DNA of 64,000 bases from Gemmatimonadaceae bacterium (GTDB lineage: Bacteria > Gemmatimonadota > Gemmatimonadetes > Gemmatimonadales > Gemmatimonadaceae). The notes beneath the pieces were generated by a model that searched no databases, had not been told where the DNA came from, and saw only the letters and a list, made by a program, of their open reading frames with translations. Positions 17,977 to 63,533 of this stretch are shown one piece after another (positions within the stretch are counted from its first letter, which is position 1; each line of letters starts with the position of its first letter). Both the position numbers and the translations under genes were made by a program. The DNA lies in NCBI GenBank assembly GCA_035701265.1, contig DASSNU010000015.1, positions 8,393-72,392 on the forward strand, read 5' to 3'.

Positions 17977-18194
17977 CGTGTGAGAGATAAGCTAACGGAG
18001 GGGAGATCTCGCTTCATCGAGACGCGGCGGGACGACGGGAGGCAACGGGGACGTGCGCGCTCCCCTCCCCCGCCAACGCGACATCGGTGCGAGGGAAGGA
18101 TGCCGGCCTCCCCGATCCGATGCCATTCCCCGCCGTTGTAGCCGCCAGCCTGAGGTACGGTCACCGGCACCCGCGCCGTGGCCCACCCTCCCAC

Positions 18195-42664: not shown

Positions 42665-43485
42665 CCGCGCCCGCCGCCGTCCGCACCTCCGACGCGCACC
42701 GTGCGCGGCTCCCATCGCTCCGCGAGCTGTGGCGCTATCGCGAGCTGCTCCGCTCGCTCGCCGCGCGTGATCTCAAGGTCAAGTATCAACGCTCCGCGCT
42801 GGGGTTCGTGTGGACGCTGCTCAATCCGATCCTCACCGTGGGCGTGCTCGTGGTGGTGTTTCACTACATCGTGAAGATCCACGTCGAGCAGTACTGGGCG
42901 TTCGTGCTCAGCGGCTACTTCGCGTGGAACTTCGTGATGCAGATGCTCAATACGTCCACCTACGTGGTGGCGGAGCACGGCGCGCTGCGACGGAGCGTGG
43001 CGTTCCCCAGCGAGGTGCTCGTCTTCGGAGCAGCGGCCGCGCGGCTGGTGGAGTTCGCGGTGGAGCTGGGGCTCATCATCGTGGCGCTCGTGCTCTGGCG
43101 GCACCACGGATTGCCGGCCAGCTACCTGCTGCTCCCCGTGCTGATCGTCATCCAGCTGCTGCTCACGATCGGGCTCGTGATGCCGATCGCGACGTTGTCC
43201 GTGTTCTACACGGACGTGCAGCACGCGCTGCCGATCGCGCTCATGTCGCTCTTCTACGTGTCCCCCGTCTTCTATCCGGCATCGCTCGTCCCCGCCGCGG
43301 TGCGCGACCTGTACATGCTGAACCCGATCGCCGACCTGCTCACGCTCTATCACACGGTGCTCTACGACGGGCGCTTCCCCTCGGCCGCGCTCCTCGGCGC
43401 GACGGCCGCCGTGTCGCTGGTGCTGTACCTGGCGGGGAGCGCGATCTTCAATCGATATCAAGCGCTGTTCGCGGAGGTCGTCTGA
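42661..43485 (+). CDS. ABC-2-type polysaccharide export permease (Wzm/TagG-like)
   Basis: ATG 42661 overlaps the upstream stop. LAARDLKVKYQRSALGFVWTLLNPIL is the family signature. There are six hydrophobic segments. Confidence 0.88.
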   Translation: MTAPAAVRTSDAHRARLPSLRELWRYRELLRSLAARDLKVKYQRSALGFVWTLLNPILTVGVLVVVFHYIVKIHVEQYWAFVLSGYFAWNFVMQMLNTSTYVVAEHGALRRSVAFPSEVLVFGAAAARLVEFAVELGLIIVALVLWRHHGLPASYLLLPVLIVIQLLLTIGLVMPIATLSVFYTDVQHALPIALMSLFYVSPVFYPASLVPAAVRDLYMLNPIADLLTLYHTVLYDGRFPSAALLGATAAVSLVLYLAGSAIFNRYQALFAEVV

Positions 43486-43486
43486 G

Positions 43487-44530
43487 GTGACCGCAGACGA
43501 TCGCGGCGCGCCCACGCCGCAGGACGCGACGCGCGGCGCGCCCGGACGGATGTCCCCCGACGCGCAGGACGCGACGCCACGCACGGCGCCCGACCCGGCG
43601 GCGCTCGCCGCTTGGGATGCCACCACGGCGGTCAGCTGCCGCGGCGTGGTGAAGCGATTCTATCGATACGAGCACCGCACGCGCTCGCTCCGCGAGCTAT
43701 TCATCCGCGCCGTGCTGCGCCGCCCCATTCACGTCCGGCGCGCCGAGTTCACGCTGCGCGGGCTGGACCTCGCCGTGCATCGCGGGGAGGCGGTGGCGCT
43801 CATCGGACGGAACGGCTCCGGGAAGAGCACCGCGCTCCGGCTCATCGCCGGCATCTACGCGCCGTCGGAAGGGGTGATCGCCACACAGGGACGGTTGGCG
43901 GCGGTGATCGAGCTGGGGGTGGGATTCCACCCCGACCTCACGGGTCGCGAGAACGTGGTGATGTATGCCGCCGTCATGGGGTTCACCCGCGCCGAGATCG
44001 CCGCCCGCTACGACGACATCGTGGAATTCGCCGGGATCGGGAACTTCATCGACGAGCCGGTGAAGTACTATTCCTCGGGAATGCAGGCGCGGCTGGCGTT
44101 CGCGGTGGCCGCGTGCGTGCGCCCGGACATCCTGCTGCTGGACGAGGTGCTGGCGGTGGGGGACCAGTCGTTCCGCGAACGGTGCCTCACCCGCTTGCGC
44201 GAGTTCCTGGCGTCAGAGGGGACGCTTATCGTGGTGTCGCATGACCTGGACTCCATCCGGTCGCTGTGCACCCGTGCGGTGTGGCTGGACGCGGGGCAGG
44301 TGCTGATGGACGGCGGGGTGGAGGAGGTGCTCTCGGCGTACGAGCGAGAGATGGGGGGGGACGGCGCGGGAGGCGGAGGGGGCGAGAGCTCCGGCGCCCC
44401 TGGCGACGCTGCTGCGCCGGTGGGCGAAGGGGCGCACGCAGGGGGTGGGGGTGAGGACGAGACACGATTGTCCACAGACGTGACGGCTTCCGCACCCACT
44501 TCGACGGAGATCGAGCTACCACCTACATAG
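43487..44530 (+). CDS. ABC-2-type polysaccharide export ATPase (Wzt/TagH-like) with low-complexity termini
   Basis: Walker A is GRNGSGKST, the signature is YSSGMQARLAFAVA, and Walker B is ILLLDEVLAVGD. GTG start. The Gly/Ala/Glu-rich C-terminal tail has no recognisable carbohydrate-binding module. Confidence 0.88.
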   Translation: MTADDRGAPTPQDATRGAPGRMSPDAQDATPRTAPDPAALAAWDATTAVSCRGVVKRFYRYEHRTRSLRELFIRAVLRRPIHVRRAEFTLRGLDLAVHRGEAVALIGRNGSGKSTALRLIAGIYAPSEGVIATQGRLAAVIELGVGFHPDLTGRENVVMYAAVMGFTRAEIAARYDDIVEFAGIGNFIDEPVKYYSSGMQARLAFAVAACVRPDILLLDEVLAVGDQSFRERCLTRLREFLASEGTLIVVSHDLDSIRSLCTRAVWLDAGQVLMDGGVEEVLSAYEREMGGDGAGGGGGESSGAPGDAAAPVGEGAHAGGGGEDETRLSTDVTASAPTSTEIELPPT

Positions 44531-45026
44531 TACGAACCCGCCGGCCGGTACGTCCCTGCCGCTCCCCGCGGCGGTGTCATGGCCAGCTGCTAACTTCTCT
44601 TCGTTCTTCAAGTTCCACCCGCAGCCCGAGCTCAGCCGGCACCGCCAGATGTGCTCACACGGCGGGGCGCCCGCCTCTCCCGTTTCGGGTCCTCCGACGC
44701 CCGTTTTCCTCTCCGCACGAGGGAGCGATTCTTGCCCAACCGCATGTCCCGGTACTCCCGACGGGGAATGGATCCCGCTGCGGGGCGCGTGGCTCCGCTC
44801 GCGGTGGGCTCCCCGGAACCGACGCTGATGGGCCGTGGAGGCAGGGGCTGCTTCCGGTGGAGGAATGCAGAGGAATCCGCTCGTGGAACCTGGCGTGACG
44901 CAGCGCTACCCTTGGCTGTCTTTGTTGCGTGTATCCCGCGACAGTAAAAGGACTTCGCGGGCCGGCACGTCGCCCATCCCCACCTCGCCGGTGCGTCTGT
45001 CGCTCTCGGCGGACCACCTACCCTCG

Positions 45027-46265
45027 ATGCCGACCGCCATCGTCGACGTAGACGTCGAGCGCATTCCCGCCGAGCTCGTCGGGCTGGAGCGCTACGAGCG
45101 CGCGCTGGTACTGTTGCGCGTGCGCGGCCATCCCGTAGGACAGATGACACTGCCGGTGACGCATGGGCGCATCGACGGTGCCGCGATCCGGGACTACGCC
45201 CTGGACCGCGAGCGGTGGCCGCTGTGGGAGCGCTGGCTGCTGGAGCACATCGGCTGGGACCCCGTGAACGCGGCGAGCAACGCGCCGCGCGTGGCGACGG
45301 TAGTGATCATCACGCACGACCGCCCGGACGATCTGCAGCGCGCGCTGGAGGCGGTGCTGCGTCTGGAGCCCGACGGCGAGGCGCACGAGATCCTGGTGGT
45401 GGACAACTGTCCGTCCAGCGATGATACGCGCGCGCTGGTGGCCGGCTACCGCGGGGTGCGCTACGTGCGCGAGGACCGCCGGGGGGCGAGCGCGGCGCGC
45501 AACCGTGCGCTCAGCGAGGCGCGGCACGACATCGTGGCGTTCACCGATGATGATGCCGCCCCCGATCCCGGCTGGCTGCGTGCGCTCCTGCGCAACTTCG
45601 ACGACCCGCTGGTCTACTGTGCCACCGGGCTCACGATGCCGCTGGAGCTGGAGACGGACGCGCAGGAGGCCAGCGAGCGGTACACGCCGCACGGGCGCGG
45701 CTACTCGCGCATCGTCTTCTCCGGCTCGCGCTGCAATCCGTTGTCGGTGGGACAGGTGGGCGTCTCGCTCAACATGGCGCTGCGGCGCAGCGTGCTCGAG
45801 CACGTGGGCGCGTTCGACGAGCTGCTGGGTCCGGGGACGCCGTGCCGCTGCGGCGAGGACTACGATCTCTTCTCGCGCATCCTCGCCGCGGGTTACCGGA
45901 TCGTCTACGATCCCGCAGCGCTGAGCTGGCACCGCCATCGCCGGACGTGGGAGGAGTTGCACGACACCGTGTTCGGCTACGGGGTGGGCGTGTACGCGTG
46001 GTGGACGCGCAGCGTGCTGGTGGAGCGCGAGTGGAGCGCGATGCAGCACGCACTGCGCTGGTTCGTGCGCAAGCAGATGCCGACGCTCGCCCGCGCACTG
46101 CGCGCGCGCCGCCGCAGTCCGGTACCGGCCAGCCTGGTGTGGGCCGAGCTGCGAGGGTGCATGGCCGGTCCGTGGGCGTATCTCGCGTCGCGGCATCGGG
46201 CGCGTCGTGCGTCGCGCGCCGCGCGGGCGAATGCGCCCGCACCGGCAACGGAGCGTGCGGCATGA
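45027..46265 (+). CDS. GT2-family glycosyltransferase (paralog family A) with an extra N-terminal domain of about 90 aa
   Basis: Motifs: VATVVIITHDRPDDLQRAL, VVDNCPSSDDT, VAFTDDDAAPDPGW, PLELETDAQEASE and WHRHRRTWEEL. The N-terminal region IVDVDVERIPAELVGLERYERALVLLRVRGHPVGQMTLP resembles the linker region of the next gene. Confidence 0.8.
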   Translation: MPTAIVDVDVERIPAELVGLERYERALVLLRVRGHPVGQMTLPVTHGRIDGAAIRDYALDRERWPLWERWLLEHIGWDPVNAASNAPRVATVVIITHDRPDDLQRALEAVLRLEPDGEAHEILVVDNCPSSDDTRALVAGYRGVRYVREDRRGASAARNRALSEARHDIVAFTDDDAAPDPGWLRALLRNFDDPLVYCATGLTMPLELETDAQEASERYTPHGRGYSRIVFSGSRCNPLSVGQVGVSLNMALRRSVLEHVGAFDELLGPGTPCRCGEDYDLFSRILAAGYRIVYDPAALSWHRHRRTWEELHDTVFGYGVGVYAWWTRSVLVEREWSAMQHALRWFVRKQMPTLARALRARRRSPVPASLVWAELRGCMAGPWAYLASRHRARRASRAARANAPAPATERAA

Positions 46266-48901
46266 GCGAGCACGCCGCATTCGCGCCGCGCGTCTCGGTC
46301 ATCATCCCCACGCATGACCGGCGCGACACGCTGAGGCAGACGCTCCAGGCGCTCGCGAAGCAGGAGTTCCCGTTCGAGCGGATGGAGGTCGTGGTCGTGT
46401 GCGACGCGTGCAGCGATGGCACCGACCAGATGGTGCGCGAGTTTCAGGCGCCCTTCTCGCTCCGTCTGGTGCGCCAGCGCGCAGCCGGCGCGGGGGCGTC
46501 GCGCAACGCGGGAGTCGCAGCCAGCACGGGGGAGCTGCTGCTCTTTCTGGACGACGACGTGGAGCCTACGCCGGGGCTGGTGGCGGCGCACGTCCGCGCG
46601 CATGGTGCCGGGCGCGACCGCGTGGTGGTGGGACCGTACCCGCCGGTGGCGCCGGGACGGCTGTCGCTCTATCGCATCCAGATGCGCGAGTGGTGGGAGC
46701 GTCAGTTCCACACCATGCGCCAGCCGGGACATCGCTTCACCTACCGCGACGTGGTGAGCGGTAACCTGTCGCTCTCGCGGGAGCTGTTCACGCGCGTGGA
46801 AGGGTTCGACCCGGCCATCACGGGCGCGGGAGGGGAAGACTGGGAGCTGGGCGTTCGGCTGCTCGCCGCCGGCGCGGAGCTCACCTTCGCGCCCGACGCG
46901 CTGGCCGCGCACCACGAGCACTCCGACCTGGCGCGCTCCTTCGCGCGCACGCGGCAGGAGGGGCGCTCCGACGTGCGCATCGGGATGCGCCATCCGGCGC
47001 TGCGTCCGTCGCTCCCCCTCGGTGCGGTGCACGCGAACGAGCGCGCGGACGCGTTGCTGCGCTTCTTCGCCTTCGACGTCCCCCTCCTGGGCGGCATGAT
47101 CGCCACACTCCTGCGTCATGCGCTCACGCTGCTCGAGCGCGCGCGGTTGCGGCAGCTCTGGCGCGCGCTGAGCGGGGCGCTGCGCCGCTACTGGTACTGG
47201 CGCGGCGTGGCGGAGCGGATTCGCAGCGCCCGCGCGCTGCGTGCGTTCGTGGCGGAAGGAGCGGCCGCGCGCGTGGAAGAGCCGTTGCTGGAGCTGGACC
47301 TGCGCCACGGCGTTGAGGAAGCGGAGCGCGCGCTCGATGCGCAGCGCCCCGCGGGTGCCCGGCTCCGCTGCGGCGCGGTGGAGATCGGCGTCATTCCCGC
47401 GCTCCCCGCGGCGGAGCGTCTGCGCGGCGCGCACCTCCGCCCCGCGCTCGCCGCCATGGCACCGGCAACGCTCATCGCGCTGGCGGCCGACCGCGTGCTT
47501 CCTCCGGTACAGATCGCCGACGCGAGCAGCCCGCGCCCCGCCGCGGCGGTCGCCGGGGACGTGCTCCGGCCGGCGAAGGTGATCTCGGTGGAGATCACGC
47601 AGCCCATGCGCTCCGTACAGGATCTCACGCACTATCGCGCGTTGCGCGTGCTCGTGCGCCGCCACGGGATGCCGGTGGGGTGGGTGGAGCTTCCCGGAGA
47701 GCGCGCGATGGTCTCGGCCACCGAACTGCTGCAGGCGATCGTGCGCAGCTACGGATGGTATCTCGTGCCCGCATTGCTCGACCGTGCGCTCCCCGCGCCG
47801 GCGCGCGCGGGTGCCGCGGGGGGCGGGGAGCGCGGCGACGCGGTCCACGCCAGTGCGGTGCGCCACGAGGCTGGGGGAGCGCGGATCACGCCGACGGACA
47901 GCGCGGTCGTGCCGCGCATCACGGTGGCCGTATGTACGCGCGACCGCGCGGCGATGCTCCGGCGGTGCCTGCAAGCGCTCTCGACGCTCGACTATCCGTC
48001 GTACGAGCTGCTGGTGGTGGACAACGCCTCGCGCGATCCGGAGACGCGCGAGGTGGCACTCCAGTTCGGCGCGCGCTACGTTCGCGAGCATCGACCGGGG
48101 CTCGACTGGGCGCGCGCACGCGCCGTGCGCGAGGCGCGGACGCCGATCATCGCGTTCACCGATGACGACACGGTGGCCGACGCGGGGTGGCTCCGCGCCA
48201 TCGCGCGCGCGTTCGCCGACCCGTCGGTGGCGGCGGTGACGGGCCTCATCGCGCCGCTCGAGATGGAGACGCACGCGCAATGGCTGTTCGAGACCATCTA
48301 TGGCGGGATGACGCAACGGCTCACCCCCTGGCGCGTGCAGCGCCAGACGGTCACGCGCTGGCAGATGCTCTGGGCGAGCGCGTACGGCGTGGGCGCGAAC
48401 ATGTCCTTCCGCCGCGAGGTGTTCGACGCGGTGGGGACGTTCGATCCGGCGCTCGACGTGGGGACGCCGAGCGGTGGCGCGGGAGACATCGAGTTGCTGC
48501 ATCGCATCGTGGCCAGCGGGCGCGTGTTGCGGTACGAGCCGTCGGCGGTGGTGTGGCATCATCACCGCGCCACGATGGACGCGCTGCGGCGCCAACTGTT
48601 CGACAACGGCCGCAGCTTCCCGATCTATCTCATGACCTGCGCGCGTAACCGCACGCTTCCGGTGCACACGATCGCCTCGTTCGCGCTCCGCGAATGGATG
48701 GGGCGCTGGTTGCTGCGACGCATGGTGCGCCCGCGCGGGATGCCGCGTCGCATGGTGTGGGCCGAGCTGTGGGGGACGATGCTCAGCCCGGTGCTGTACG
48801 TCCGGACGCGCGCGCATGCCCGGCGCATCGCGCAGCTTCCCGACGAGGAGCCGGTCGTGGCGCGCGAGCCGGACGCGGCGGCGTCGCTCGCCGCGCGGTG
48901 A
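46262..48901 (+). CDS. Dual-domain GT2-GT2 glycosyltransferase (family B domain + N-terminal-domain/family A domain)
   Basis: Domain 1: VSVIIPTHDRRDTL...LLFLDDDVE...GGEDWELGVRLL. The linker contains VISVEITQPMRSVQDLTHYRALRVLVRRHGMPVGWVELP. Domain 2: ITVAVCTRDRAAML...VVDNASRDPET...IAFTDDDTVADAGW...PLEMETHAQ...WHHHRATMDAL. ATG 46262 overlaps the upstream stop. Confidence 0.82.
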   Translation: MSEHAAFAPRVSVIIPTHDRRDTLRQTLQALAKQEFPFERMEVVVVCDACSDGTDQMVREFQAPFSLRLVRQRAAGAGASRNAGVAASTGELLLFLDDDVEPTPGLVAAHVRAHGAGRDRVVVGPYPPVAPGRLSLYRIQMREWWERQFHTMRQPGHRFTYRDVVSGNLSLSRELFTRVEGFDPAITGAGGEDWELGVRLLAAGAELTFAPDALAAHHEHSDLARSFARTRQEGRSDVRIGMRHPALRPSLPLGAVHANERADALLRFFAFDVPLLGGMIATLLRHALTLLERARLRQLWRALSGALRRYWYWRGVAERIRSARALRAFVAEGAAARVEEPLLELDLRHGVEEAERALDAQRPAGARLRCGAVEIGVIPALPAAERLRGAHLRPALAAMAPATLIALAADRVLPPVQIADASSPRPAAAVAGDVLRPAKVISVEITQPMRSVQDLTHYRALRVLVRRHGMPVGWVELPGERAMVSATELLQAIVRSYGWYLVPALLDRALPAPARAGAAGGGERGDAVHASAVRHEAGGARITPTDSAVVPRITVAVCTRDRAAMLRRCLQALSTLDYPSYELLVVDNASRDPETREVALQFGARYVREHRPGLDWARARAVREARTPIIAFTDDDTVADAGWLRAIARAFADPSVAAVTGLIAPLEMETHAQWLFETIYGGMTQRLTPWRVQRQTVTRWQMLWASAYGVGANMSFRREVFDAVGTFDPALDVGTPSGGAGDIELLHRIVASGRVLRYEPSAVVWHHHRATMDALRRQLFDNGRSFPIYLMTCARNRTLPVHTIASFALREWMGRWLLRRMVRPRGMPRRMVWAELWGTMLSPVLYVRTRAHARRIAQLPDEEPVVAREPDAAASLAAR

Positions 48902-50307
48902 CCGCGCGCGCCGAGTCGGAGCCCGGCCGGCACCGCGCGGCCATCCTGCTCACGGCGGTCGCGCTCACCGCGCTCGCGCTCCGGCTGCTCGCCGCCTGGC
49001 ACGCCAACGCGCACCTGCCCGACGATCCGTCGCGGCTCACCGGCGACGAGACCAACTACGACGGGCTGGCCTACGCGCTCCTGCAGGGCGCGTTCTTCAC
49101 GTGGCCGGGACGCGCGCCGCTCTACCCTGCCCTCCTCGCTGGCGGATATCTCGCCTGGGACTACTCGTTCGCCGCCGTGCTGTATGCGCAGGCGGTGCTG
49201 GCAACCGCCGTCGTGCCGCTCACGTACCTGCTGGCGCGACGGTGCACGCTACGGCGCGCCGTGGCGCTCGGCGCGGCGGCCATCGTTGCCGTCCACCCCG
49301 CGCTCATCCGCCAGGTGACGCGCATCGACGCGGCGGTGCTCTTCACGCCGCTCCTGCTCTTCACCGTGCTGCTGCTCGAGCGCGCGCTCCGGCGGGAGCG
49401 CGCTGAACGCGCGCACGTTGCCGCCGGCGCGGCGCTGGGGCTCGCCGCGCTCTGCCAACCCACCGTGTTGTTCCTTCCCCTCGCGCTCCCCTTCGCCCTG
49501 CCGCGCACGCGAACGCGCCGAGCGCGATGGCGCGCGTGGGGTGCGATCACGGGCGTCATGCTGCTCACGATCGCGCCGTGGAGCTGGCACAACTGGCGGA
49601 CGTACCACCGCGTGCTGCCGGTGTCGGTCTCGATCGCCGCGCTCTGGCGCGGCAGCCCGGAGTTCGATGCGCTCACGCGGAAGGGGGAGACGATCGTGGA
49701 CGTCTTCGCCACCGCGCTCAACCCCGCGCGCAACGGCGGCCACGATCCGTTCACGGTGGATGGCGACCGATGGTTCACCGCGCGCGGCTGGCACTCCATT
49801 CGCGCGCACCCGCTGGCGTATGCCGGCTACGTGGCACGGAAGCCGGTGTATTTCTGGATGGGAAACCGTGCCGGCGATTGGCCGGGGAATCGCGTGTTCG
49901 ACGTGGCCGCGCTCTGGCGCGCGGAGGGGGCGTGGAAGGCGGTCGTGGACCTCGCCATCAGGATCCTTCCGTTGGCGGCGGTCGCCGCGCTCCTGGTGCT
50001 GCGCCGCCGCCTCGGTGAGCTCCGGCTGCTGCTCGTGGTGCTCGGCTACGCCACGGTGTATCATGCTCTGCTGTACGCCGAGGTGCGCGCGAGCGAGCCG
50101 TGGCATCCGTTGCTGGCGATCCTCGTCGCTGCGGCGATCGGCGAGCTGGCGGCACGGTACGCGCCGTCTCCGGCGCCGGCGCCGCGGCGGATCACCACGT
50201 ACGCCATGCGCCGGCTCGTCATCTCCGACGGCCACGACACGGTGGGCACATCGCACACGCTGCCGGCACAGGATCCGGATCGACCACCGAGCGCGGCACG
50301 GAGCTGA
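48898..50307 (+). CDS. GT-C fold membrane glycosyltransferase (ArnT/PMT_2-like, GT39/GT83 type)
   Basis: GTG 48898 overlaps the upstream stop (GTGA). The DE motif (GDETNYDGLAYALL) lies in the first loop. About 10 TM segments follow. Confidence 0.72.
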   Translation: MTARAESEPGRHRAAILLTAVALTALALRLLAAWHANAHLPDDPSRLTGDETNYDGLAYALLQGAFFTWPGRAPLYPALLAGGYLAWDYSFAAVLYAQAVLATAVVPLTYLLARRCTLRRAVALGAAAIVAVHPALIRQVTRIDAAVLFTPLLLFTVLLLERALRRERAERAHVAAGAALGLAALCQPTVLFLPLALPFALPRTRTRRARWRAWGAITGVMLLTIAPWSWHNWRTYHRVLPVSVSIAALWRGSPEFDALTRKGETIVDVFATALNPARNGGHDPFTVDGDRWFTARGWHSIRAHPLAYAGYVARKPVYFWMGNRAGDWPGNRVFDVAALWRAEGAWKAVVDLAIRILPLAAVAALLVLRRRLGELRLLLVVLGYATVYHALLYAEVRASEPWHPLLAILVAAAIGELAARYAPSPAPAPRRITTYAMRRLVISDGHDTVGTSHTLPAQDPDRPPSAARS

Positions 50308-50330
50308 CCGCGCGCGCCGCGCGACATCGC

Positions 50331-53300
50331 ATGCTCGTCTCGGTCATCATCCCCGTCCACGACACGGTGGACACGCTCCCCGACACGCTCGCGTCGCTCA
50401 TCGCGCAGCGGCATGCGTTGTGGGAGGCGATCGTGGTGGACGACGGCTCCACGCGCGACGTGGCAGCCGCGGTGGCACGCGCCGCTCCCGGTCCGGGCGA
50501 CGCGCGCATTCGCGTGGTGCGGCAGGAGCGCGCCGGGGTGAGCGCCGCGCGCAATCGCGGGATCGCCGACGCGCGCGGCGAATGGCTGCTCTTCCTCGAT
50601 GCCGACGATTGGATCGCCCCCGACGCGCTCGCGCACCTCGTCGCGGCCGTGGAAGGGGATCCCTCGCTGGATGCGGTGCACGCGGGGTGGGCGCGTGTGC
50701 TCCCCGATGGGACGCACACCGGCGTGCGCCACGCCGCGCTCGAGGGAGATCTCTTCCCTGAGCTGGCGCGCTACTGCGTGTTCGTCATTCATGCGTGTCT
50801 GGTGCGGCGCGCGGTGGTACAGCGTGTGGGCGGGTTCGACCCCGCGCTCCGCACCAACGAGGATTGGGACCTCTGGCAGCGCATCGCGCGCACGGGTGCG
50901 CGCTTCGGCGCGGTCCCGGAGGTGCTCGCGCTCTACCGCACGCGCGCCGGCTCCGCGTCGGCGGACAGAGCACGACTCCTTGCCGACGCGCTCACGGTGA
51001 TCGCGCGCGGACATGCGCCCGATCCGCGCGTCGCGGAGCCGGCGCCGGCGCACCGCGCCGGAGCGCCGCGCGGTGAGTGTTCCGACGCACAGCTCACCTA
51101 CGCCTGCTGGCCGCTCGCGCTCGCCATCGGGAGCGGCGCCGACGTGGCGCCCCTCCTCGCGCTCCTCCGCGACGTTGGCGCCACACCGGGGATCGATCCC
51201 GATCCGATGGTGCGCGTGTTCGTGGAAGCGGTGCCGCTCGCACGCGGTGCGCCGCCCTCGGCGTGGCCGGACATCTGGACGGACGTCGAGAGCGCGCTCG
51301 GCACCTGTCTCGACGCGCTGGAAGAGCGTACCGGCGCGCCGGAGCTCGCGCGCCGTCTGCACCGCGGCATCGAGACGGCAGTGCTGGATGACCGGCTGTG
51401 CGCGGTCGAGCGAGTACAGGCGCCGGACGACGCGGGAAAGCAGCGCGCGCCAGCATCCGCTCACGACGGCGAACGACCAGATGCAACAGCGCGCGGCGCG
51501 GCGTCGCTCGCGGCGTGGACGGCGGTGGGGCGGAGCGCGGGGGGGGTGCTGCAACTCGAGCATGGCGTGCCCGACGTCGTCGCGCCGCCGCGTGTGGAGC
51601 ATCTGCGCGTGCACGCGCGGCTGGGTGCGGACGCGGTGGGCACGATCTCGCTTCCGGTGTGTGACGGTGTGGTCCCCGCGCGCGTGCTGGGCGACGCGGT
51701 GGCCGCCGCGCACGCGTGGGAGCTGCTGCGTCTGCTGCGCTCGCGCTGGCGCGGAGAGCCCATCGCGGCCGCGGATCACGACACCGAGGGATGGGGCGAG
51801 CTGCTGCGCGACATCTGGGGGCTGCCGGCGCTCGCCATGGACGCGTTCTACGACGCGAGCGCCGCGGTGGACGCCGATACCACCGCGCCGGAATGCCCGG
51901 CGCCGGATGGCATCGCCACCGTGGAGGTGAGCGAGCCGGTCCCGGCGGTGGTGACCGATCGCGACATGCTGGTGGTGCGCGTCACGGTGGGCGGCGTGTC
52001 GACGGGTATGGTGGCGGTGCAACCCGCGGACGGACGCATCGCCCCGCACGCGCTGCGCGTAGCGATCACGATGGCCATGGGATACGAGCTGTGCATTGCC
52101 GCCGTGCGCGAAGTGTTGCTCGCGATGGGAACGGCGGGGGATGATACGGCGGGCAGCGAGACAGCGCATACACTGCGCGGCGCGCTGTCGCGCTCGGCCG
52201 CACGGTGCGAGGGCTCCGGCATGCGGGCGGGGCAGAGCGCTACGGTGCCTGGCCTGAGTGGGGAGCCGGACGCGCGCGGGCTCGTGCAGCCGCATGCGCG
52301 TGGGCTCCTGCTCGAGCGGCGCGACGCGATGGTCTTCGGCACGAGCGCGTCGCGCTGGGCGGCGCTCCCGGCGCGGAGCGCGGACGCGTTGCGCGAGAGC
52401 GCACGGGCGGCGGGAGAGCGCGTGGCAGCGGTGGACGCCGAGGGGCAGACAGGCGACGCACCCACCGCACCGGCGTGGGCGGTCTATCGCCCGGACGTGC
52501 TGCCCGACGCGCCCTCCATCACGACGGCGCAGAGCGCGGCGGCGGATGCGGCGGCGGGCGTCCTGTCGCCCGCGTCCGCCGCGGGCGCTCGCTCGAGCGA
52601 CATCGCACCGCGCGAGCACGCAGCGCAGGAGGCCGCGCGCGCGCCGTGGGGGCGTGCGTACTTCGAGCGCCTGTTCGCCACCAGCGAGGATCCGTGGAGC
52701 TACATCTCGCCGTACGAGCAGCGCAAGTACGAGCAGACGCTCTCGCTCCTTCCGCGCGGGCGGATCGCGCGCGCCCTCGAGCTGGCGTGCGCCGAAGGGC
52801 ACTTCACGGTGCAGCTCGCGCCGAGAGTGGCTCAGCTCGTGGCGGCGGACATCTCGAGCGTGGCACTCGAGCGCGCGAAGCTCGCATCCGAGCGCGCCGG
52901 GCTGGACAACGTGCGCTTCGAGCGCCTGGACTTCATGCGGGATCCGATCCCGGGACAGTGGGATCTCATCATCTGCAGCGAGGTGCTGTACTTCGCCGAC
53001 GATCCGGCGCAGTTGCAGCGCGTGGCGGATGCGCTCGCCCGTGCGCTCGCGCCGGGCGGAGTGCTCCTTGCGGCACACGCGAACCTGCGCGTGGATCAGC
53101 CGACCGACACCGGATTCGACTGGTCGCTTCCCTGCGGGGGGGAGACGATCGCGCGTACGCTCGCGAGCACTCCCGGGCTGGTGCTGGAGCGCGTGGTGCG
53201 CACGGATCTCTACCGCGTGCTCCGTCTGCGCCGCGTCCCGAGCGCCTTCACCTCACTCGGCCGTTCGCTCGTGCGCCTCGCGCCGGGGCGCATCGTGCAG

Positions 53301-54176
53301 GCCGACGTCGCGATGCCCGAACCGCACGTGGCGCGACACATCATCTACGCCACGCGGCAGGACGGACATGCCGCGGCGGGCGAGGCTGCACCGGACGCCA
53401 CGCACACAGAAACGGCCGCGGTGGCGCGCGTCGCTCCGGACGCATCGCCGCAGCCGCCCGTGCTCACGCACGCGCTCCCGATCCTCCTCTATCATCGCGT
53501 GGCCGACGACGGCGCGCCGGCAACGGCCGGGTGGCGCATCACCCCCGCCGCGTTCGAGGAGCAGCTCGCATACCTGCGCGATTCAGGCTACCAGAGCGCG
53601 ACGATCGAGGAATGGCACGAGGCGGTGCGAACGCGGCGCGCGCTCCCCGGGCGCCGCGTGCTCATCACCTTCGACGACGGCCCGCGCGACTTCCTCACAC
53701 ACGCGTGGCCGCTGCTCCGCCGCTACGGATTCGGCGCGACGCTCTTTCTGGTGACGGACCTGGTGGGCGGATGGAACGAGTGGGATGCGCGCTACGGCGA
53801 GCGCGTGCCGCTCCTGTCGTGGGACGAGGTGCGGCAGCTCGCCGATGACGGCGTGGCGCTCGGCTCGCACTCGGCGCGTCACCGTGCACTGGCGGCGCTG
53901 GAGCCGCACGAGGTGGTGACGGAAGCCGCACGATCGCGCGCCGCGATCGCGCGCCACACGAGTGGCGGAGCTCCGCCGCGCGCGTTCGCCTTTCCTTACG
54001 GCGTGGAGGACGCACCCGCACGGCATCTGGTGGGCGCGGCGGGGTACGCGTACGCCTTCACGGTGCGCATGCGCCGCGCGCGTCTCACCGATCCGCTGCT
54101 GGCGCTCCCCCGCATCCTCATTGCGGGCGCGGACGACCTCGGGCGCTTCGTGACGAAGGTGGAATCGCCGGCGTGA
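50331..54176 (+). CDS. Trifunctional fusion: GT2 glycosyltransferase + long middle region + NodS-like SAM methyltransferase + NodB-type (CE4) polysaccharide deacetylase
   Basis: GT2: LVSVIIPVHDTVDTL...IVVDDGS...LLFLDADDW...NEDWDLWQR. NodS-like: EDPWSYISPYEQRKYEQTLSLLPRGRIARALELACAEGHFTVQLAP...AADIS. CE4: VLITFDDGPRDF...HSARH. The start is at ATG 50331. Confidence 0.82.
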   Translation: MLVSVIIPVHDTVDTLPDTLASLIAQRHALWEAIVVDDGSTRDVAAAVARAAPGPGDARIRVVRQERAGVSAARNRGIADARGEWLLFLDADDWIAPDALAHLVAAVEGDPSLDAVHAGWARVLPDGTHTGVRHAALEGDLFPELARYCVFVIHACLVRRAVVQRVGGFDPALRTNEDWDLWQRIARTGARFGAVPEVLALYRTRAGSASADRARLLADALTVIARGHAPDPRVAEPAPAHRAGAPRGECSDAQLTYACWPLALAIGSGADVAPLLALLRDVGATPGIDPDPMVRVFVEAVPLARGAPPSAWPDIWTDVESALGTCLDALEERTGAPELARRLHRGIETAVLDDRLCAVERVQAPDDAGKQRAPASAHDGERPDATARGAASLAAWTAVGRSAGGVLQLEHGVPDVVAPPRVEHLRVHARLGADAVGTISLPVCDGVVPARVLGDAVAAAHAWELLRLLRSRWRGEPIAAADHDTEGWGELLRDIWGLPALAMDAFYDASAAVDADTTAPECPAPDGIATVEVSEPVPAVVTDRDMLVVRVTVGGVSTGMVAVQPADGRIAPHALRVAITMAMGYELCIAAVREVLLAMGTAGDDTAGSETAHTLRGALSRSAARCEGSGMRAGQSATVPGLSGEPDARGLVQPHARGLLLERRDAMVFGTSASRWAALPARSADALRESARAAGERVAAVDAEGQTGDAPTAPAWAVYRPDVLPDAPSITTAQSAAADAAAGVLSPASAAGARSSDIAPREHAAQEAARAPWGRAYFERLFATSEDPWSYISPYEQRKYEQTLSLLPRGRIARALELACAEGHFTVQLAPRVAQLVAADISSVALERAKLASERAGLDNVRFERLDFMRDPIPGQWDLIICSEVLYFADDPAQLQRVADALARALAPGGVLLAAHANLRVDQPTDTGFDWSLPCGGETIARTLASTPGLVLERVVRTDLYRVLRLRRVPSAFTSLGRSLVRLAPGRIVQADVAMPEPHVARHIIYATRQDGHAAAGEAAPDATHTETAAVARVAPDASPQPPVLTHALPILLYHRVADDGAPATAGWRITPAAFEEQLAYLRDSGYQSATIEEWHEAVRTRRALPGRRVLITFDDGPRDFLTHAWPLLRRYGFGATLFLVTDLVGGWNEWDARYGERVPLLSWDEVRQLADDGVALGSHSARHRALAALEPHEVVTEAARSRAAIARHTSGGAPPRAFAFPYGVEDAPARHLVGAAGYAYAFTVRMRRARLTDPLLALPRILIAGADDLGRFVTKVESPA

Positions 54177-58578: not shown

Positions 58579-61416
58579 TCAGGGGACGGGGAAAAGGAGT
58601 GCCGCCGGAAGGTGACCGAACAGGGCGTCCGCCGGGAGCGCGCCGCCGGCCGCCGTCACCGTACGCCCGCTCAGCTCGCATCGCCACGTGTCTCCCCACC
58701 CGTCAGGAAGCGGAATCGCGGTTCGGGAGAATGCCGCGGACAGGGGATCGGGGACGTGCGCGGTGAGTCGCGGGACGGCCGTGATGGCGGTGGCGCCCTC
58801 CAGGCGGCGGGCGAAGGCCAGCACGCTGGCGGCCGCTCCCCCCGCTGCGGCGAGGGGGACGTACTCCCCGCGCGCGAACAGCTCCGCGTGCGCGCGCCGC
58901 GCCTGGAGCGATCGCCAGGTGATCCACAGCTTCACGCGGCCGTCCTCCGGATGCGCGACCAGCTCGCCGACCAGCGCGCGCACGGCGTCGTCGCTCCCCT
59001 CCGCGGCCGATGCGCGTGCCTCCAGCTCGGCGAGCAGCCGCTGCCGGAGTGCGAAGTCCACCGGGCGCCGGTTGTCCGGATCCACGAGGGTGAAGCTCCA
59101 CAGCTCGTCCCCCTGGTAGAGATCGGGGACGCCGGGGGTGGTCGCATGCACGACCACGCGCGCGAGCGCGTTGCGCATGCCGGCGGGGGCGAGCTCGGAC
59201 ACCAGCGTGCTCACCTGTCGCGCGAAGGGGGTGTCGGGACGCTCGAGGAGCGCGCAGATGAAGCGGTCCACCGCGCCCTCCCACCCTTCGTTCGGGCGCC
59301 CCCAGCTCGTGTGCACCTTCGCTTCGCGCCCCGCCTTGCGCAGGTAGTCTCGCGTGCGCTGCAGGATGTCCGCGTGCTCGTGGCTGGGCAACGACGCGCC
59401 CGGCACGAGCGGCGGCCAGATGCCGATCACCGTCTGGTAGATGAGATACTCGGTGGCCGCGTCGGGGACCGTGCGGCCGGCAACGCGCGTGCGGAACGGG
59501 CGGTGCGCGCGGCGCCACGCGCTCACCTGGCGCAGCCATCGATCGGGGATCTCGCTCAACACGTCCAGCCGCGCGCGCGTGTCGGCGCTGTGCTTGGTGT
59601 CGTGCGTGGTACCGGCCAGGAGCGTGTCCGGCCAGTGGCGCGCGCGCTCATCGCACGCGGCGTGAAAGTCCGCCACCGCGTGGTGAAGGTCGCGTGCCGG
59701 GTCGCCGCCCACTTCGTTGAGCGACGCGAGCGGCACATAGCGGTAGAGCGCGGTGTCCTCGATGCCCTTGGCCGCCGCGGGGCCGCTCGTCTGCTGCACG
59801 CGCGTGACGAAGCGCAGCCGCGCATCATCGTGCGCGCGTGCCGCCTCCGCATCCGCGCGCTCGCCGTGACTCCACGATGCGCGCGGCGACTCGACGATGA
59901 GCGCGGCGAGCCACGAGATCACGCCGGGATCGATGCCGCGGCGCGCCTCCGCCTGGCGCGCGGCGTCGTGCACCACCTCCCGGTCCGCCTTGCGTGGCGC
60001 ATCGCGCGCATCGATGTACGTGCGGTAGACGGGGAGACAGGCGATGAGCGTCTCCACCGCGCGCGTGAGCGCCGCGCCGCGCGCGGCGGGTGCGCCCTGT
60101 TCGGCGGCGAGCGGCCCGAGCAGCCGGCGCAACCGGCGCACGTCAGCAAGGAGCGAGTGGGAGAGCACGAGCAGCTTGGCGCGGATGCCGATCTCGCGGA
60201 ACGACACGCGCGTGCGCGTGACGCGGCGGTACGCGCTCTCGATGCGCGCGGCACCAGCGGGGTCCACGAACACCGACTCCAGCTCGTTCAGGAACTCGTA
60301 GCCCGTGGTCCCCTGCACCGGCCATTCGCGCGGCAGCCGCTCGCGCGCGGCGAGGATCTTCTCCACCACGATCGGCATCTCCGCCGGCGCGCCCGCGCTG
60401 CGCGTGGCCGCGCGCAGCCGCTCCAGGTAGCCGCGCGGATCGGCCAGACCGTCCACGTGATCCACGCGCAACCCATCCAGCGCGCCCTCGCTCACGAAGT
60501 GGAGCACGAGCGCGTGCGTGTCGGCGAAGACGGCGGGATCTTCCATGCGCAGCGCGACGAGCTCGTTGATGTTGAAGAAGCGCCGGTAGTTCAGCTCGCG
60601 CTCCGCGCGCCGCCAGTACGCCAGGCGATATGCCTGCCGCCTGAGCAGCGCACGCAGCCGGTCCCGACCCTCGCTCCCTTCCGTGAATGTCCGCGCCGCG
60701 GCGCGTGCATCGCCCGGCACGGCGGCGCGCACCTTGTCCTCCGATTCCGGGCTCAACGGGAAGCGCCGGTCGGCGTAGGCGAGCAGCAATTCCCCGTCCT
60801 CCTCCACGATCGACAGCTCGCCGCGCGCGAGCACGCGCTCCAGCGAGTCGCCCAGCAGGGGGAGCAGGACGCGCCCGCGCAGCGGACGGCGAATGGGATC
60901 CCAGTCGATGTCGAACCACCCGGCGTACGCGGAGTGCCGGCCGCGCCGCAGCACGTCCATCCAGAACGGATTGTCGCGTCCCACCCCCATGTGGTTGGGG
61001 ACGATGTCGAGCAGCCATCCCATCCCGCGGTCGTGCAGCGCCTGGACGGCGGCGCGGAATTCGTCGCGCGCGCCGAGCGCCGGATCGAGCCGCGTGGGAT
61101 CGGCCACGTCGTAGCCGTGCGTACTGCCGCGGCGCGCCATCAAGATGGGCGAGCTGTACAGGTGCGAGATGCCGAGCCGCTCCAGATACGGCACGAGCTC
61201 GCGCACGCGCGCGAAGGGCATCTCGGCGCTCATCTGGATCCGGCAGGTGGCGCGGAGCGGGCGCGGCGGGCGTAGTGCCGGCGCGTCCGAGCTCGGCGCA
61301 TCGGAGCGCGGTGCGGCCGAACGCGGCGTGTCCGAACGCGGCGTGTCCGAACGCGGCGCGCCGGGTCGTGTATTGGGCGACGCGGCGGACGCTGCGGCGA
61401 ACGGCAGCGCGCTCAC
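58579..61416 (-). CDS. treY: Malto-oligosyltrehalose synthase
   Basis: ATCRIQMSAEMPFARVRELVPYLERLGISHLYSSPILMARRGSTHGYDVADP...LLDIVPNHMGV matches the TreY N-terminus. The only start upstream of the conserved ATxRxQ strand is GTG 61416, which overlaps the malQ stop (GTGA). That start adds a repeat-encoded extension. Confidence 0.85.
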   Translation of the reverse strand: MSALPFAAASAASPNTRPGAPRSDTPRSDTPRSAAPRSDAPSSDAPALRPPRPLRATCRIQMSAEMPFARVRELVPYLERLGISHLYSSPILMARRGSTHGYDVADPTRLDPALGARDEFRAAVQALHDRGMGWLLDIVPNHMGVGRDNPFWMDVLRRGRHSAYAGWFDIDWDPIRRPLRGRVLLPLLGDSLERVLARGELSIVEEDGELLLAYADRRFPLSPESEDKVRAAVPGDARAAARTFTEGSEGRDRLRALLRRQAYRLAYWRRAERELNYRRFFNINELVALRMEDPAVFADTHALVLHFVSEGALDGLRVDHVDGLADPRGYLERLRAATRSAGAPAEMPIVVEKILAARERLPREWPVQGTTGYEFLNELESVFVDPAGAARIESAYRRVTRTRVSFREIGIRAKLLVLSHSLLADVRRLRRLLGPLAAEQGAPAARGAALTRAVETLIACLPVYRTYIDARDAPRKADREVVHDAARQAEARRGIDPGVISWLAALIVESPRASWSHGERADAEAARAHDDARLRFVTRVQQTSGPAAAKGIEDTALYRYVPLASLNEVGGDPARDLHHAVADFHAACDERARHWPDTLLAGTTHDTKHSADTRARLDVLSEIPDRWLRQVSAWRRAHRPFRTRVAGRTVPDAATEYLIYQTVIGIWPPLVPGASLPSHEHADILQRTRDYLRKAGREAKVHTSWGRPNEGWEGAVDRFICALLERPDTPFARQVSTLVSELAPAGMRNALARVVVHATTPGVPDLYQGDELWSFTLVDPDNRRPVDFALRQRLLAELEARASAAEGSDDAVRALVGELVAHPEDGRVKLWITWRSLQARRAHAELFARGEYVPLAAAGGAAASVLAFARRLEGATAITAVPRLTAHVPDPLSAAFSRTAIPLPDGWGDTWRCELSGRTVTAAGGALPADALFGHLPAALLFPVP
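61276..61365. repeat. 15-bp tandem repeats (acgcggcgtgtccga-like, 5-6 units) at the malQ-treY junction
   Basis: Units start at 61276, 61291, 61306, 61321, 61336 and, degenerate, 61351. On the minus strand they encode PRSDT/PRSDT/PRSAA/PRSDA/PSSDA. Confidence 0.85.
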
Positions 61417-63533
61417 CGGCGGCCGCGCGCGCAGCGGAGTGCGCGTGCCACGTGCGGGTCGGACGAGAGCGCCTCCACCGGTACGGCGAGTCGCCGCGTC
61501 CAGCTCGGGAAGCGGTCGGCGCTCACGCCGGGCACGTTCACTGGGCGTTCCTCCCCCACCAGGTCGTCGAGCGAGAGCGCCACGAGCGCGGACGGCGTGC
61601 GGCAGAGGAAGGCGTGCACCGCCGCGCACAGCTCGCTCTCGTCGGGCGTGACGCCGGGCGCGAGAAGGCCTTCCGTCTGCAGACGCTCGATGAGCCGCTT
61701 GCGATCCGCGGCGCGCTCCGCCTCCGCGCGGCGCAACGCGTCGTCGTCGGGGATGAGCTCGAGCGCGCGGCGGAGCGGCAGGTCGGTGCCGCGCCAGAAT
61801 GCACGAAGCGTGGGATGATCGTGCGTGGTGGCCGACGCGAGCGCGCGCGGCTCGTAGGATGCCGCGTCACGGTAGCCGCCATCCTCGGTGCGCTCGAAGG
61901 GGAGCACGCGCGAGGAGAGGATCTGCCAGCGCGCCAGCGTGCCGTGCACCTCCGGCGGTACGGTGCCCAAGTCTTCTCCCACGATGATCGCGCCGTGACG
62001 GACGCTCTCGAGCGCGAGGATGCCCAGCAGATCCTCGGTGGGAAAGCGGATGTACGCGCCCTCGCGCGCGGGCGCACCGTCGGGAATCCAGAACTGGCGG
62101 AACAGCCCGAGGATGTGGTCCACGCGCAGCGCGCCGGAGTGCGCGAGCGTGGCGCGCAGCAGCAGTCGCCAGTACCGGTATCCGCTCTCGCGCAATCGCG
62201 CGGGGTGCAGTGGGGGCAACCCCCAGTTCTGTCCTTCCGCGGCGTACGCGTCGGGAGGCGCGCCCAGCGTCGCGCCGCGCACGAAGATGTCGGGGAACGA
62301 CGCGACGTCGCTCCCTCCCGGCGCGCTCCCGATCGCCAGATCCTGGTAGATCCCGATGGCGAGCCCCGCGTCGCGTCCGCGCGCGGCGGCGACGGCAAGC
62401 TGCCGGTCGAGCTCGAACTGCAGCCAGCGATGGAAATCTTCATCGTCACGTGCGTCCTCGCCGGCGCGCCGCTCGGACGGCGCGGGATCGAGCGTCGCCA
62501 TGAAACGGGCGAACTCATCCAGCGGCGCCCCCTGCGCGCGGCAGTACGCCAGGTACGCACGCTCGCGCTCGCTGTCGCGCTGGTGGTGCAGCGCGCGGAA
62601 GGTGCGATGGAGCGCGCGCAGCACCGGCATCTTGAGCGCGAACACGAGGTCGTACAGCACCGCGTCGCTCGCGCGCGCGCGGTGCAACGTCTCCTGCACG
62701 TGCGCGGTGGCGAGCAGGGCGCGCGCCTCGTCGCACGCGGGCATCTCCGGAACCGCTTCCACGTCGATGTAGATCGGGTTGCGGTAGAGCCGGCTCACGG
62801 GCGAATACGGCGAGATGTCCATCCCGCTGTTGCGCGTGGCGTGCAGAGGATTCACCCCCACGAAGTCGCCGCCGCGCGCGCCGGTCCACGCGGCCAGCGC
62901 GCCGAGGGTGGTGCAGTCGCCCACTCCCCAGTCGCGCTCGCGGCGCACCGAGAACAGACTGGCGGTCACGCCGAACGCGGTGCGCGCGCCGAGCACCTCG
63001 GCGGGGGACACGCATCGCTCGGGAACGACGATGAGCGCCTGCTCCGCGCGCTGCTCCGCACCGTCCAGCCGCGCGACGATCTCCAGCCGGTGATAGCCGA
63101 GCGGTGGGACCGCCGGCAGCGGTGCACGGACCACGCTGCCGTCCACGCGCGCGCGACCCTCGCGATGCAGTACGTCGCCCTGCTCCGTGTGCAACGCGAG
63201 CGACCATGTCACATCGCTTCCGACCGCCTCGGGCGGCACGCGGAGCTCCAGGCGCGAGCGGGCGTGCACCGCCGCGGTGGCCACGCGCACCGGCTCGAGG
63301 AGCCGTGCCGCGGCTGCCGCGTCGAGCGCGGCGACCGTGCGTGCGGCCGCATCTTCGTCGCTCGCATCGAGACCGAGCACCGCCAGCAGCGCGACGGCCG
63401 ACGATGCGCACAGCTCGCGCGTGCGCCCTTCGGTGTCCATGTACGACGGGAGGATTCCCGCGCGGTCGCACAGCGCGCGCAGCGCGGGGCTGGCGAGCGC
63501 CGGCACGTCGCGGGGGGCGGATGCGGTGGACAC
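61413..63533 (-). CDS. malQ: 4-alpha-glucanotransferase (amylomaltase, GH77) with an N-terminal extension domain
   Basis: 706 aa. Motifs: GVGDCTTLGALAAW, GGDFVGVNPLHA, YSPVSRLYRNPIYID, QNWGLPP, LRVDHILGLFRQFWIP and IVGEDLGTVP. Confidence 0.88.
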   Translation of the reverse strand: MSTASAPRDVPALASPALRALCDRAGILPSYMDTEGRTRELCASSAVALLAVLGLDASDEDAAARTVAALDAAAAARLLEPVRVATAAVHARSRLELRVPPEAVGSDVTWSLALHTEQGDVLHREGRARVDGSVVRAPLPAVPPLGYHRLEIVARLDGAEQRAEQALIVVPERCVSPAEVLGARTAFGVTASLFSVRRERDWGVGDCTTLGALAAWTGARGGDFVGVNPLHATRNSGMDISPYSPVSRLYRNPIYIDVEAVPEMPACDEARALLATAHVQETLHRARASDAVLYDLVFALKMPVLRALHRTFRALHHQRDSERERAYLAYCRAQGAPLDEFARFMATLDPAPSERRAGEDARDDEDFHRWLQFELDRQLAVAAARGRDAGLAIGIYQDLAIGSAPGGSDVASFPDIFVRGATLGAPPDAYAAEGQNWGLPPLHPARLRESGYRYWRLLLRATLAHSGALRVDHILGLFRQFWIPDGAPAREGAYIRFPTEDLLGILALESVRHGAIIVGEDLGTVPPEVHGTLARWQILSSRVLPFERTEDGGYRDAASYEPRALASATTHDHPTLRAFWRGTDLPLRRALELIPDDDALRRAEAERAADRKRLIERLQTEGLLAPGVTPDESELCAAVHAFLCRTPSALVALSLDDLVGEERPVNVPGVSADRFPSWTRRLAVPVEALSSDPHVARALRCARGRR

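Follow-up and report, generated by a model that had tools for sequence, protein, structure and literature searches.

INTRODUCTION

In the synthesis of rhizobial Nod factors, NodB and then NodS act in the cytoplasm on the non-reducing terminal N-acetylglucosamine (GlcNAc) of the precursors. A CE4 de-N-acetylase is likewise paired with a NodS-family S-adenosylmethionine (SAM)-dependent methyltransferase in a cytoplasmic protein of 1281 amino acids (aa), which is encoded at 50331–54176 on the plus strand of a 64,000-nucleotide (nt) stretch of DNA from Gemmatimonadaceae bacterium (contig DASSNU010000015.1 of assembly GCA_035701265.1), referred to here in its whole length as the window. The window protein shares with NodS the N-terminal signature DPW...YE..K, but it is an ortholog of neither Nod enzyme, and its CE4 domain belongs to the branch of PgaB, IcaB and PplD. 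In a further difference, one polypeptide joins the two domains with an N-terminal GT2 glycosyltransferase domain, and the gene stands in an operon that encodes Wzm and Wzt and has neither nodA nor nodC. Based on the identity of the domains, their context and their co-occurrence, we lean towards the reading that this protein is a cytoplasmic enzyme that would both add and tailor a sugar, transferring an N-acetyl-hexosamine (HexNAc) to a lipid-linked glycan, de-N-acetylating it and N-methylating the freed amine.

Large cytoplasmic proteins that join glycosyltransferase and tailoring methyltransferase modules have been described in WbdD, WbbB and K. pneumoniae O7 ORF6 (PMC11231755, PMC3482155). 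Like the window protein, these are encoded with Wzm and Wzt, often with a Wzt of the Wzt_C type, and their modules are split or fused depending on the lineage. The window protein differs from them in having no coiled-coil ruler, the Wzt of the window differs in having no Wzt_C, and the use of CE4 plus NodS-like tailoring has no precedent among characterized terminators.

Two other systems share parts of this chemistry. The catalytic His of YH(R), the Asp pair of TFDDG and the H..H metal ligands of PgaB, IcaB and PplD are all kept in the window CE4 domain; however, those enzymes are secreted or membrane-anchored, whereas the window CE4 has no export signal, is fused to cytoplasmic enzymes and is missing the C-terminal domain of PgaB. 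In the Caulobacter holdfast system, the GT2 enzyme HfsG and the cytoplasmic CE4 enzyme HfsH act on a carrier-linked glycan before its export, but they are separate proteins of a Wzx/Wzy pathway that has no methyltransferase, and their models match the window protein weakly (HfsH 26 bits, HfsG 32 bits, far under the cutoffs).

RESULTS

A single uninterrupted gene encodes the fusion

The reading frame is open from 50100 and runs without interruption to a stop at 54176. We place the start at ATG 50331 (MLVSVIIPVHD...), 24 nt past the stop (50307) of the upstream GT-C gene, a choice that agrees with the N-termini of homologs and yields 1281 aa, the length on record for an identical protein. We discount an upstream GTG start at 50100, for which there is no support among the homologs and which would make the gene run 208 nt into the GT-C gene. 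The GC content by codon position is uniform over the whole open reading frame (ORF; 0.79/0.57/0.84), and thus there is no sign of a frameshift. The initial annotation had read 50331–54176 as one ORF and had named frameshifts or separate genes as the finding that would undo this reading. Indeed, the uniform codon-position GC and the hundreds of homologs in which the fusion is kept, colinear and at full length, bear out the single gene: the fusion is genuine and is not an assembly artefact.

Because of its high GC content, the window also holds long spurious antisense and over-extended ORFs, and mechanical ORF lists exaggerate gene lengths in it. A spurious antisense ORF of 1005 aa (50061–53078, minus strand) runs across the 1281-aa gene, and two ORFs on the plus strand (39492–41540 and 45842–48901) carry Arg-rich false extensions of ~140–360 aa at the N-termini of GT2 genes.

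Identity of the three catalytic domains

The N-terminal domain (aa 1–212; 50331–50966, plus strand) is, as first annotated, a GT2 glycosyltransferase. The Pfam model Glycos_transf_2 matches aa 4–113 (E 5e-30), and related GT2 models carry the match to ~200. The motifs DDGS (D38), DADD (D90/D92/D93) and EDWDLWQR (D180) are invariant in the family, and the hidden Markov model (HMM) match, the DxD motif and the catalytic base in the ED motif are those of an inverting GT2 enzyme of the GT-A fold. The nearest structures to the GT2 domain of a homolog, P0088, are WrtF, TarS/TarP and heparosan synthase, with RmlT also named as a neighbour; WrtF, TarS, TarP and RmlT extend or decorate O-polysaccharides and wall polymers and are not polyprenyl-phosphate sugar synthases.

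The methyltransferase (aa 776–965; 52656–53225, plus strand) is of class I and carries the motifs DPWxY...YEQxKYE, LELACAEGHFT (motif I), AADIS and CSEVLYF. Its start, DPWSYISPYEQRKYEQTLSLLP...LELACAEGHFT, had been noted to follow the NodS pattern; this segment is found at aa 787–826, and NodS (PF05401) is the top methyltransferase family in Pfam (aa 785–915, 59.5 bits, gathering score 24). Similarly, the best match among PDB sequences is NodS 3ofj (E 1e-17), in an alignment that takes in the DPW...YE..K signature, and in the P0088 model the structure closest to this domain is again NodS (template modelling (TM) score 0.85, root-mean-square deviation 2.6). The NodS equivalog model (NCBIfam NF041650) scores 71.6 to 76.4 bits, compared to 34 bits for the second family, TehB, so the clustering with non-NodS families that would have spoken against the annotation is not seen. 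Since the equivalog cutoff is 300 bits, the sequence points to a member of the NodS family that is not a NodS ortholog. The neighbouring genes encode GT2, GT4, Wzm, Wzt and GT-C proteins and not NodA, NodB or NodC; the NodC model reaches just 32–45 bits on the neighbouring GT2s (cutoff 550).

The C-terminal domain (aa 1045–1278; 53463–54164, plus strand) is a CE4 deacetylase of the PgaB/IcaB/PplD type. Polysacc_deac_1 of Pfam matches aa 1105–1241 (E 1e-23), TFDDG lies at aa 1113–1117 and HSARH at aa 1180–1184, and YH1055R, TFD1115D1116G and H1180SARH1184 are invariant. H1055, D1115, D1116, H1180 and H1184 align with the PgaB/IcaB motifs YH, TFDDG and SH(S/T), and, alongside the HMM match, the domain keeps the full CE4 set of catalytic Asp, catalytic His and Asp-His-His metal triad. 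The domain had been called NodB-like on the strength of TFDDG and HSxxH. The CE4 assignment and both motifs stand, but the particular likeness to NodB does not: the PgaB model scores 104 bits, IcaB 45 and NodB 30 (30.1 with TIGR04243, cutoff 240), and the structure that the CE4 domain of the P0088 model resembles most is PplD (TM score 0.89). The domain thus has its nearest relatives in PgaB, IcaB and PplD and not in NodB, without being a PgaB ortholog, since the PgaB model (TIGR03938) gives 104 bits against a cutoff of 322, is matched at profile positions 4–144 of 621 only, and is not accompanied by a signal peptide.

In all three domains, the catalytic and cofactor residues are invariant in alignments of 28–60 homologs. 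The 1281-aa protein has neither a signal peptide nor a transmembrane segment, which should place all three catalytic domains in the cytoplasm, a site that fits a glycosyltransferase using nucleotide sugars and a SAM enzyme, both of which require it.

The fusion is conserved and the methyltransferase occurs with CE4

At least 949 relatives of the 1281-aa protein were found among 5.8 billion proteins. The best 120 of these are full length and colinear, with 36–58% identity over ~100% of the query, the same Pfam content and the same domain order, and in alignments of 28 and 60 members the conservation extends over the whole length, the middle region included. NCBI has already given such proteins the name ‘trifunctional glycosyltransferase/class I SAM-dependent methyltransferase/polysaccharide deacetylase’ (e.g. 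WP_035611435.1); the architecture is therefore catalogued and named, which lowers its novelty, although the name describes the architecture and not a tested function. A literature search covering the fusion, NodS-like enzymes and N-methyl amino sugars in O-antigens found no study of this trifunctional family.

The family comprises several hundred clusters at 50% identity, from cyanobacteria, Gemmatimonadota, anammox Planctomycetes, Acidobacteria, Actinomycetota and rhizobia. Within it, the window protein is divergent: its gene is GC-rich, its Ala/Gly-rich linkers are long, and a single relative is more than 45% identical to it. In a scan of genome contigs, its best matches are from Gemmatimonadota (top identity 41%).

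If the methyltransferase modifies the amine freed by the CE4 domain, the two should occur together. In a census of the 150 best representatives with the middle region, 58 proteins have GT2, middle region and CE4, 54 have GT2, middle region, methyltransferase and CE4, and 21 have GT2 and middle region alone. The combination of GT2, middle region and methyltransferase without CE4 is found in only 2 of the 150; one of these is clearly truncated inside that domain, and the second stops 11 residues beyond it. GT2 plus middle region is the core of the family, CE4 is a frequent addition, and the methyltransferase is essentially dependent on CE4, which is the expected pattern. The methyltransferase and CE4 also travel together without GT2, as stand-alone NodS plus CE4 proteins such as one of 511 aa in Hyphomicrobium (L023), which has a separate GT2 nearby. 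The initial annotation had proposed that an amino sugar is de-N-acetylated and then N-methylated. The order of the steps gains comparative support from the census (54 proteins against 2) and from the NodS plus CE4 proteins, whereas N-methylation of a hexosamine is a step that we infer.

As to whether orthologs encode the domains as separate genes, a question raised with the annotation, the fusion is kept in hundreds of homologs, but domains are sometimes split or dropped. Variants with a short middle region occur in Mesorhizobium and other Alphaproteobacteria. The Mesorhizobium relatives (L009, L013, L014, L015 and L032) are ~980 aa long and consist of GT2, ~300 aa, a NodS-like domain and CE4; their middle region is not recognized by the module profiles described below, and no Wzm or Wzt is found within 10 kb of them. 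There are also larger fusions, in which a trifunctional homolog is joined to further GT2 modules or to a SPASM domain. The SPASM domain is fused N-terminally in P0097 and P0103 and is missing from the window, and a radical-SAM/SPASM gene lies directly upstream of the trifunctional homologs in L083 (8912–9997) and L084 (8671–9726), which suggests an extra tailoring step in those lineages.

The middle region and a module shared with neighbouring GT2 enzymes

The ~560 aa between the GT2 and methyltransferase domains (aa 213–775) are conserved across the family without a family match. No Pfam or NCBIfam model matches aa 205–770, in agreement with the ~550 aa of unassigned sequence reported at first. 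In a confident AlphaFold2 (AF2) model of aa 205–790 (predicted local distance difference test (pLDDT) 84, predicted TM score (pTM) 0.83), the region begins with a predicted helical bundle (aa 213–365; 50967–51425), which always follows this GT2 subtype. It continues with a module of beta-hairpins and helices that holds HLRVHARLGADAVGTISLPVCDG (aa 395–472; 51513–51746), a second module that repeats the first in kind (aa 520–600; 51888–52130), and a small alpha/beta unit (GTSASRW...LP; aa 655–745; 52293–52565) flanked by low-confidence Ala/Gly-rich linkers, all on the plus strand. A Foldseek search of the model against the PDB gave nothing with E < 0.1, and a 10-sequence profile of the middle region run against PDB sequences gave marginal bacteriophytochrome matches alone (E ~0.1).

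The full-length AlphaFold model of P0088, which is ~43–47% identical to the window protein, has a pLDDT of 90.9 and a pTM of 0.83, and this high pTM suggests that the protein forms one rigid multi-domain body. Helices in both models are no longer than ~26 residues. Among 1.84 billion representative proteins, the middle region is found in 575 clusters at E ≤ 1e-3 and 392 at E ≤ 1e-10, and in nearly all complete-looking proteins it begins at about residue 203–215, straight after GT2.

One segment of the middle region, HLRVHARLGADAVGTISLPV (aa 423–442), had been noted to resemble LVLLRVRGHPVGQMTLPV, which is encoded at 45105 within the GT2 gene at 44835–46265. The resemblance is real; it is weak in pairwise comparison (BLASTP E 4e-4) but significant when module profiles of the trifunctional family are run against all window ORFs (dual-GT2 protein, E 1e-6 and 3.5e-8; GT2 encoded at 44835, E 6e-5). 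The shared element is a beta-hairpin-plus-helix module of ~70 aa that has no Pfam model and that occurs in the trifunctional middle region and at the N-terminus of, or between the domains of, GT2 and dual-GT2 proteins. In the window GT2 genes the copies lie at 45036–45236 and 47576–47779 (plus strand), and at homolog loci they lie at L082 3865–4068, L084 15925–16119, L006 7281–7463 and L021 5593–5781; the same module is N-terminal in dual-GT2 proteins that adjoin homologs at cyanobacterial, Brocadia, Gemmatimonadota and Bacteroidota loci. This module may be a docking module.

The operon and its counterparts at other loci

The 1281-aa gene is the last of a plus-strand operon that encodes a GT4, four GT2s, Wzm, Wzt, a dual GT2 and a GT-C. 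The operon begins with the GT4 gene (36864–38255), followed by a GT2 with a C-terminal hydrophobic segment and PpgS/ArnC/DPM-like matches (~38420–39526), two more GT2s (~40560–41540 and ~41519–42664), a Wzm-type ABC-2 permease (42661–43485) and a Wzt-type ATP-binding cassette (ABC) ATPase for glycan export (43487–44530). The remaining upstream genes encode the GT2 with the shared module at its N-terminus (44835–46265), the dual-GT2 protein of ~881 aa with the module between its two GT2 domains (46256–48901), and a PMT_2-type GT-C membrane glycosyltransferase of 469 aa (48898–50307). Overlaps of start and stop codons join several of these genes (ATGA between the third GT2 and Wzm, GTGA between the dual GT2 and the GT-C), and the operon is translationally coupled. 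Downstream of the 1281-aa gene lie opposite-strand genes of glycogen metabolism.

The closest relative (58% identity, metagenomic, L001) shows full synteny over the operon, with the GT-C and trifunctional genes overlapping. We found just 24 homologs of the GT-C protein, and the two homolog contexts that were examined have no trifunctional gene; the linkage of the GT-C and trifunctional genes is peculiar to the window lineage. The linkage to Wzm and Wzt is wider. Wzm and Wzt genes lie within 10 kb of the trifunctional homolog at ~half of the informative loci, and in at least 14 loci besides the window, across phyla (L003, L004, L006, L008, L011, L012, L016, L021, L022, L031, L082, L083, L084 and L089).

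Other neighbours vary. In L090, the trifunctional gene directly adjoins a Sulfotransfer_1 gene (9257–9991), a pairing that recalls the sulfation decoration of Nod factors; GT4 and PhyH genes lie next to them. The large GT2 neighbour in L083, inspected by eye, shows nothing obvious as a coiled coil.

The window holds a second glycan-biosynthesis cluster at 1–30050, which is in part of lower GC content (61–64% at 4–14 kb versus 70–74% elsewhere). It encodes a Bac_transf plus GT4 fusion (1009–3267, minus strand), a weak CE4 match (2802–3842, minus), an ABC exporter (11476–13473, minus), a UDP-GlcNAc 2-epimerase (16912–17991, minus) and a PglF/CapD-like dehydratase (28014–30050, plus), together with GNAT, epimerase/dehydratase and NTP_transf_5 proteins. 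Between the two glycan clusters, an ORF at 35130–36230 (minus strand) has zinc-ribbon and helix-turn-helix motifs of the IS1595/InsA type and may be a transposase remnant. The named relatives of the window MalQ (61413–63533, minus strand) are from Gemmatimonadota, at ~50–53% identity, and just one metagenomic contig, that from which P0002 and P0287 come, is close to the window; the window lineage is probably a deep, poorly sampled, high-GC, Gemmatimonadota-like diderm and not an actinobacterium.

DISCUSSION

We propose that the window protein acts as a soluble cytoplasmic enzyme of a Wzm/Wzt ABC-transporter-dependent surface-polysaccharide pathway that builds its product on a polyprenyl carrier. 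The GT2 domain would move a HexNAc from a nucleotide sugar onto the non-reducing end of the lipid-linked glycan, and the PgaB/PplD-type CE4 domain would then take the N-acetyl group off that residue. Using SAM, the NodS-like domain would methylate the freed amine, giving a cationic N-methyl-hexosamine before export. The ~560-aa middle region may serve as a rigid scaffold keeping all three catalytic domains together, and its beta-hairpin/helix modules, which also occur in the neighbouring GT2s, may let the enzyme dock to a polymerase complex. The integrity of the gene, the identity of its domains, their intact catalytic motifs, the operon and the pattern of domain gain and loss in the family are shown here, whereas we infer the donor sugar, methylation on N and not on O, the order of the steps and the placing of the residue within or at the end of the chain.

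Several observations weigh against this proposal. The nearest characterized CE4 enzymes, PgaB, IcaB and PplD, act on extracytoplasmic substrates (finished polymers or the linkage unit), and a cytoplasmic role for the CE4 domain would therefore be a departure from them. The donor of the GT2 domain cannot be told from its sequence, and HexNAc is suggested by the fused CE4 domain alone. The methyltransferase is so far under the NodS equivalog cutoff that its acceptor atom is not fixed by this likeness, and the label ‘NodS-like’ is also borne by an O-methyltransferase (PMC8730385). About half of the family has no methyltransferase and some members have no CE4, so that the three activities are not obligatorily coupled. 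Some homologs lie outside any glycan cluster (L085), and our literature search found no N-methyl-hexosamine polysaccharide tied to the trifunctional family.

The proposal has a special case, which we regard as rather unlikely, in which the protein is a chain-terminating cap synthase analogous to WbdD and WbbB. The HexNAc that is added, deacetylated and N-methylated would be the last of the chain; it would stop polymerization and, where Wzt carries Wzt_C, license export. The terminal residue is the one on which NodB and NodS act, and the known terminators are methyltransferases or glycosyltransferases in multi-module proteins (PMC11231755). Consistent with a cap, Wzt_C is present on the Wzt encoded beside the homolog in at least nine loci (L006, L011, L012, L022, L031, L082, L083, L084 and L089), and in L082–L084 the trifunctional protein has the only methyltransferase domain in the displayed cluster. 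However, Wzt_C is absent from the Wzt of the window and of its closest relative, L001, and variants that have no methyltransferase are found beside Wzts of both kinds, so that in the few loci compared the presence of the methyltransferase and that of Wzt_C show exceptions both ways (L031, L021 and the window). Moreover, all characterized terminators sit on an extended coiled-coil ruler (PMC11231755), but the AF2 models of the middle region and of the full-length homolog are compact (pTM 0.83 for each) and have no long coiled coil. The L084 locus has an adjoining paralog with GT2 and middle region, and the L089 cluster holds another methyltransferase. In L088 (10001–21009), three paralogs stand in tandem, two with GT2, middle region, methyltransferase and CE4 and one with GT2 and CE4, next to a fused ABC exporter of the MsbA/PglK type and with a PMT_2 gene nearby. 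These tandem paralogs and their different exporter suggest that the tailored residue need not end a chain. A fuller version of the cap idea, in which ABC-dependent glycans are finished without a ruler, by a rigid enzyme whose cationic N-methyl-hexosamine cap is read by Wzt_C exporters and whose middle region is a new fold that docks polymerase GT2s, seems to us unlikely.

It is equally doubtful that the three domains act on different sites and are fused for co-localization, with, for example, a GT2 that transfers a neutral sugar, a CE4 that de-N- or de-O-acetylates an existing residue (such as the primer GlcNAc, as for PplD) and a methyltransferase that O-methylates another. In this case the top structural neighbour of the CE4 domain would be apt, since PplD deacetylates the GlcNAc of a linkage unit (PMC8807736). 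GT2 adaptors such as WbbL act straight on primer GlcNAc, O-methylation is the usual tailoring in ABC-dependent glycans, and in part of the family the domains are gained or lost independently. The finding that the methyltransferase occurs essentially only with CE4, in a pair that travels even without GT2, would be hard to explain if their substrates were unrelated, and NodS is far closer to this domain than any other methyltransferase family is.

Very improbable, finally, is an Arn-like carrier route, in which GT2 makes a polyprenyl-phosphate-HexNAc that is tailored by CE4 and the methyltransferase while still carrier-bound (compare the deformylation of Und-P-Ara4FN by ArnD), and a GT-C transfers the N-methyl-hexosamine to the exported glycan after the flip: a PMT_2/ArnT-type GT-C is encoded directly upstream, co-transcribed and, in the closest relative, overlapping, a weak GT-C-like gene (ALG10) adjoins a cyanobacterial homolog, and a PMT_2 gene lies near the L088 array, but the GT2 domain lacks the transmembrane or membrane-interface helices expected of an ArnC/DPM/GtrB-type GT2 and is closer to glycan-extending GT-A enzymes than to ArnC, PpgS or DPM (ArnC 33 bits with a cutoff of 529, versus EpsD 97 bits), the operon GT2 at ~38420–39526 is a likelier donor synthase for the GT-C, GT-C homologs elsewhere are unlinked to trifunctional genes, and most homolog loci have no GT-C.

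The combination of Nod-type tailoring with a GT2 and a middle region of unassigned fold, in operons for ABC-dependent glycans, has no characterized precedent. N-methylated or free-amine hexosamines alter the charge and antigenicity of surface glycans, and to our knowledge they have rarely been documented in bacterial polysaccharides outside Nod factors. The trifunctional family offers a natural, rigid assembly of three enzymes in which to study sequential glycan tailoring, and it holds a conserved region of 560 aa without a known structural relative. The cultured, genetically tractable organisms that carry it (Nostoc, Tolypothrix and Mesorhizobium) make the hypothesis directly testable. If the proposed function is true, N-methyl-hexosamine residues would be widespread, and would be predictable straight from genomes.

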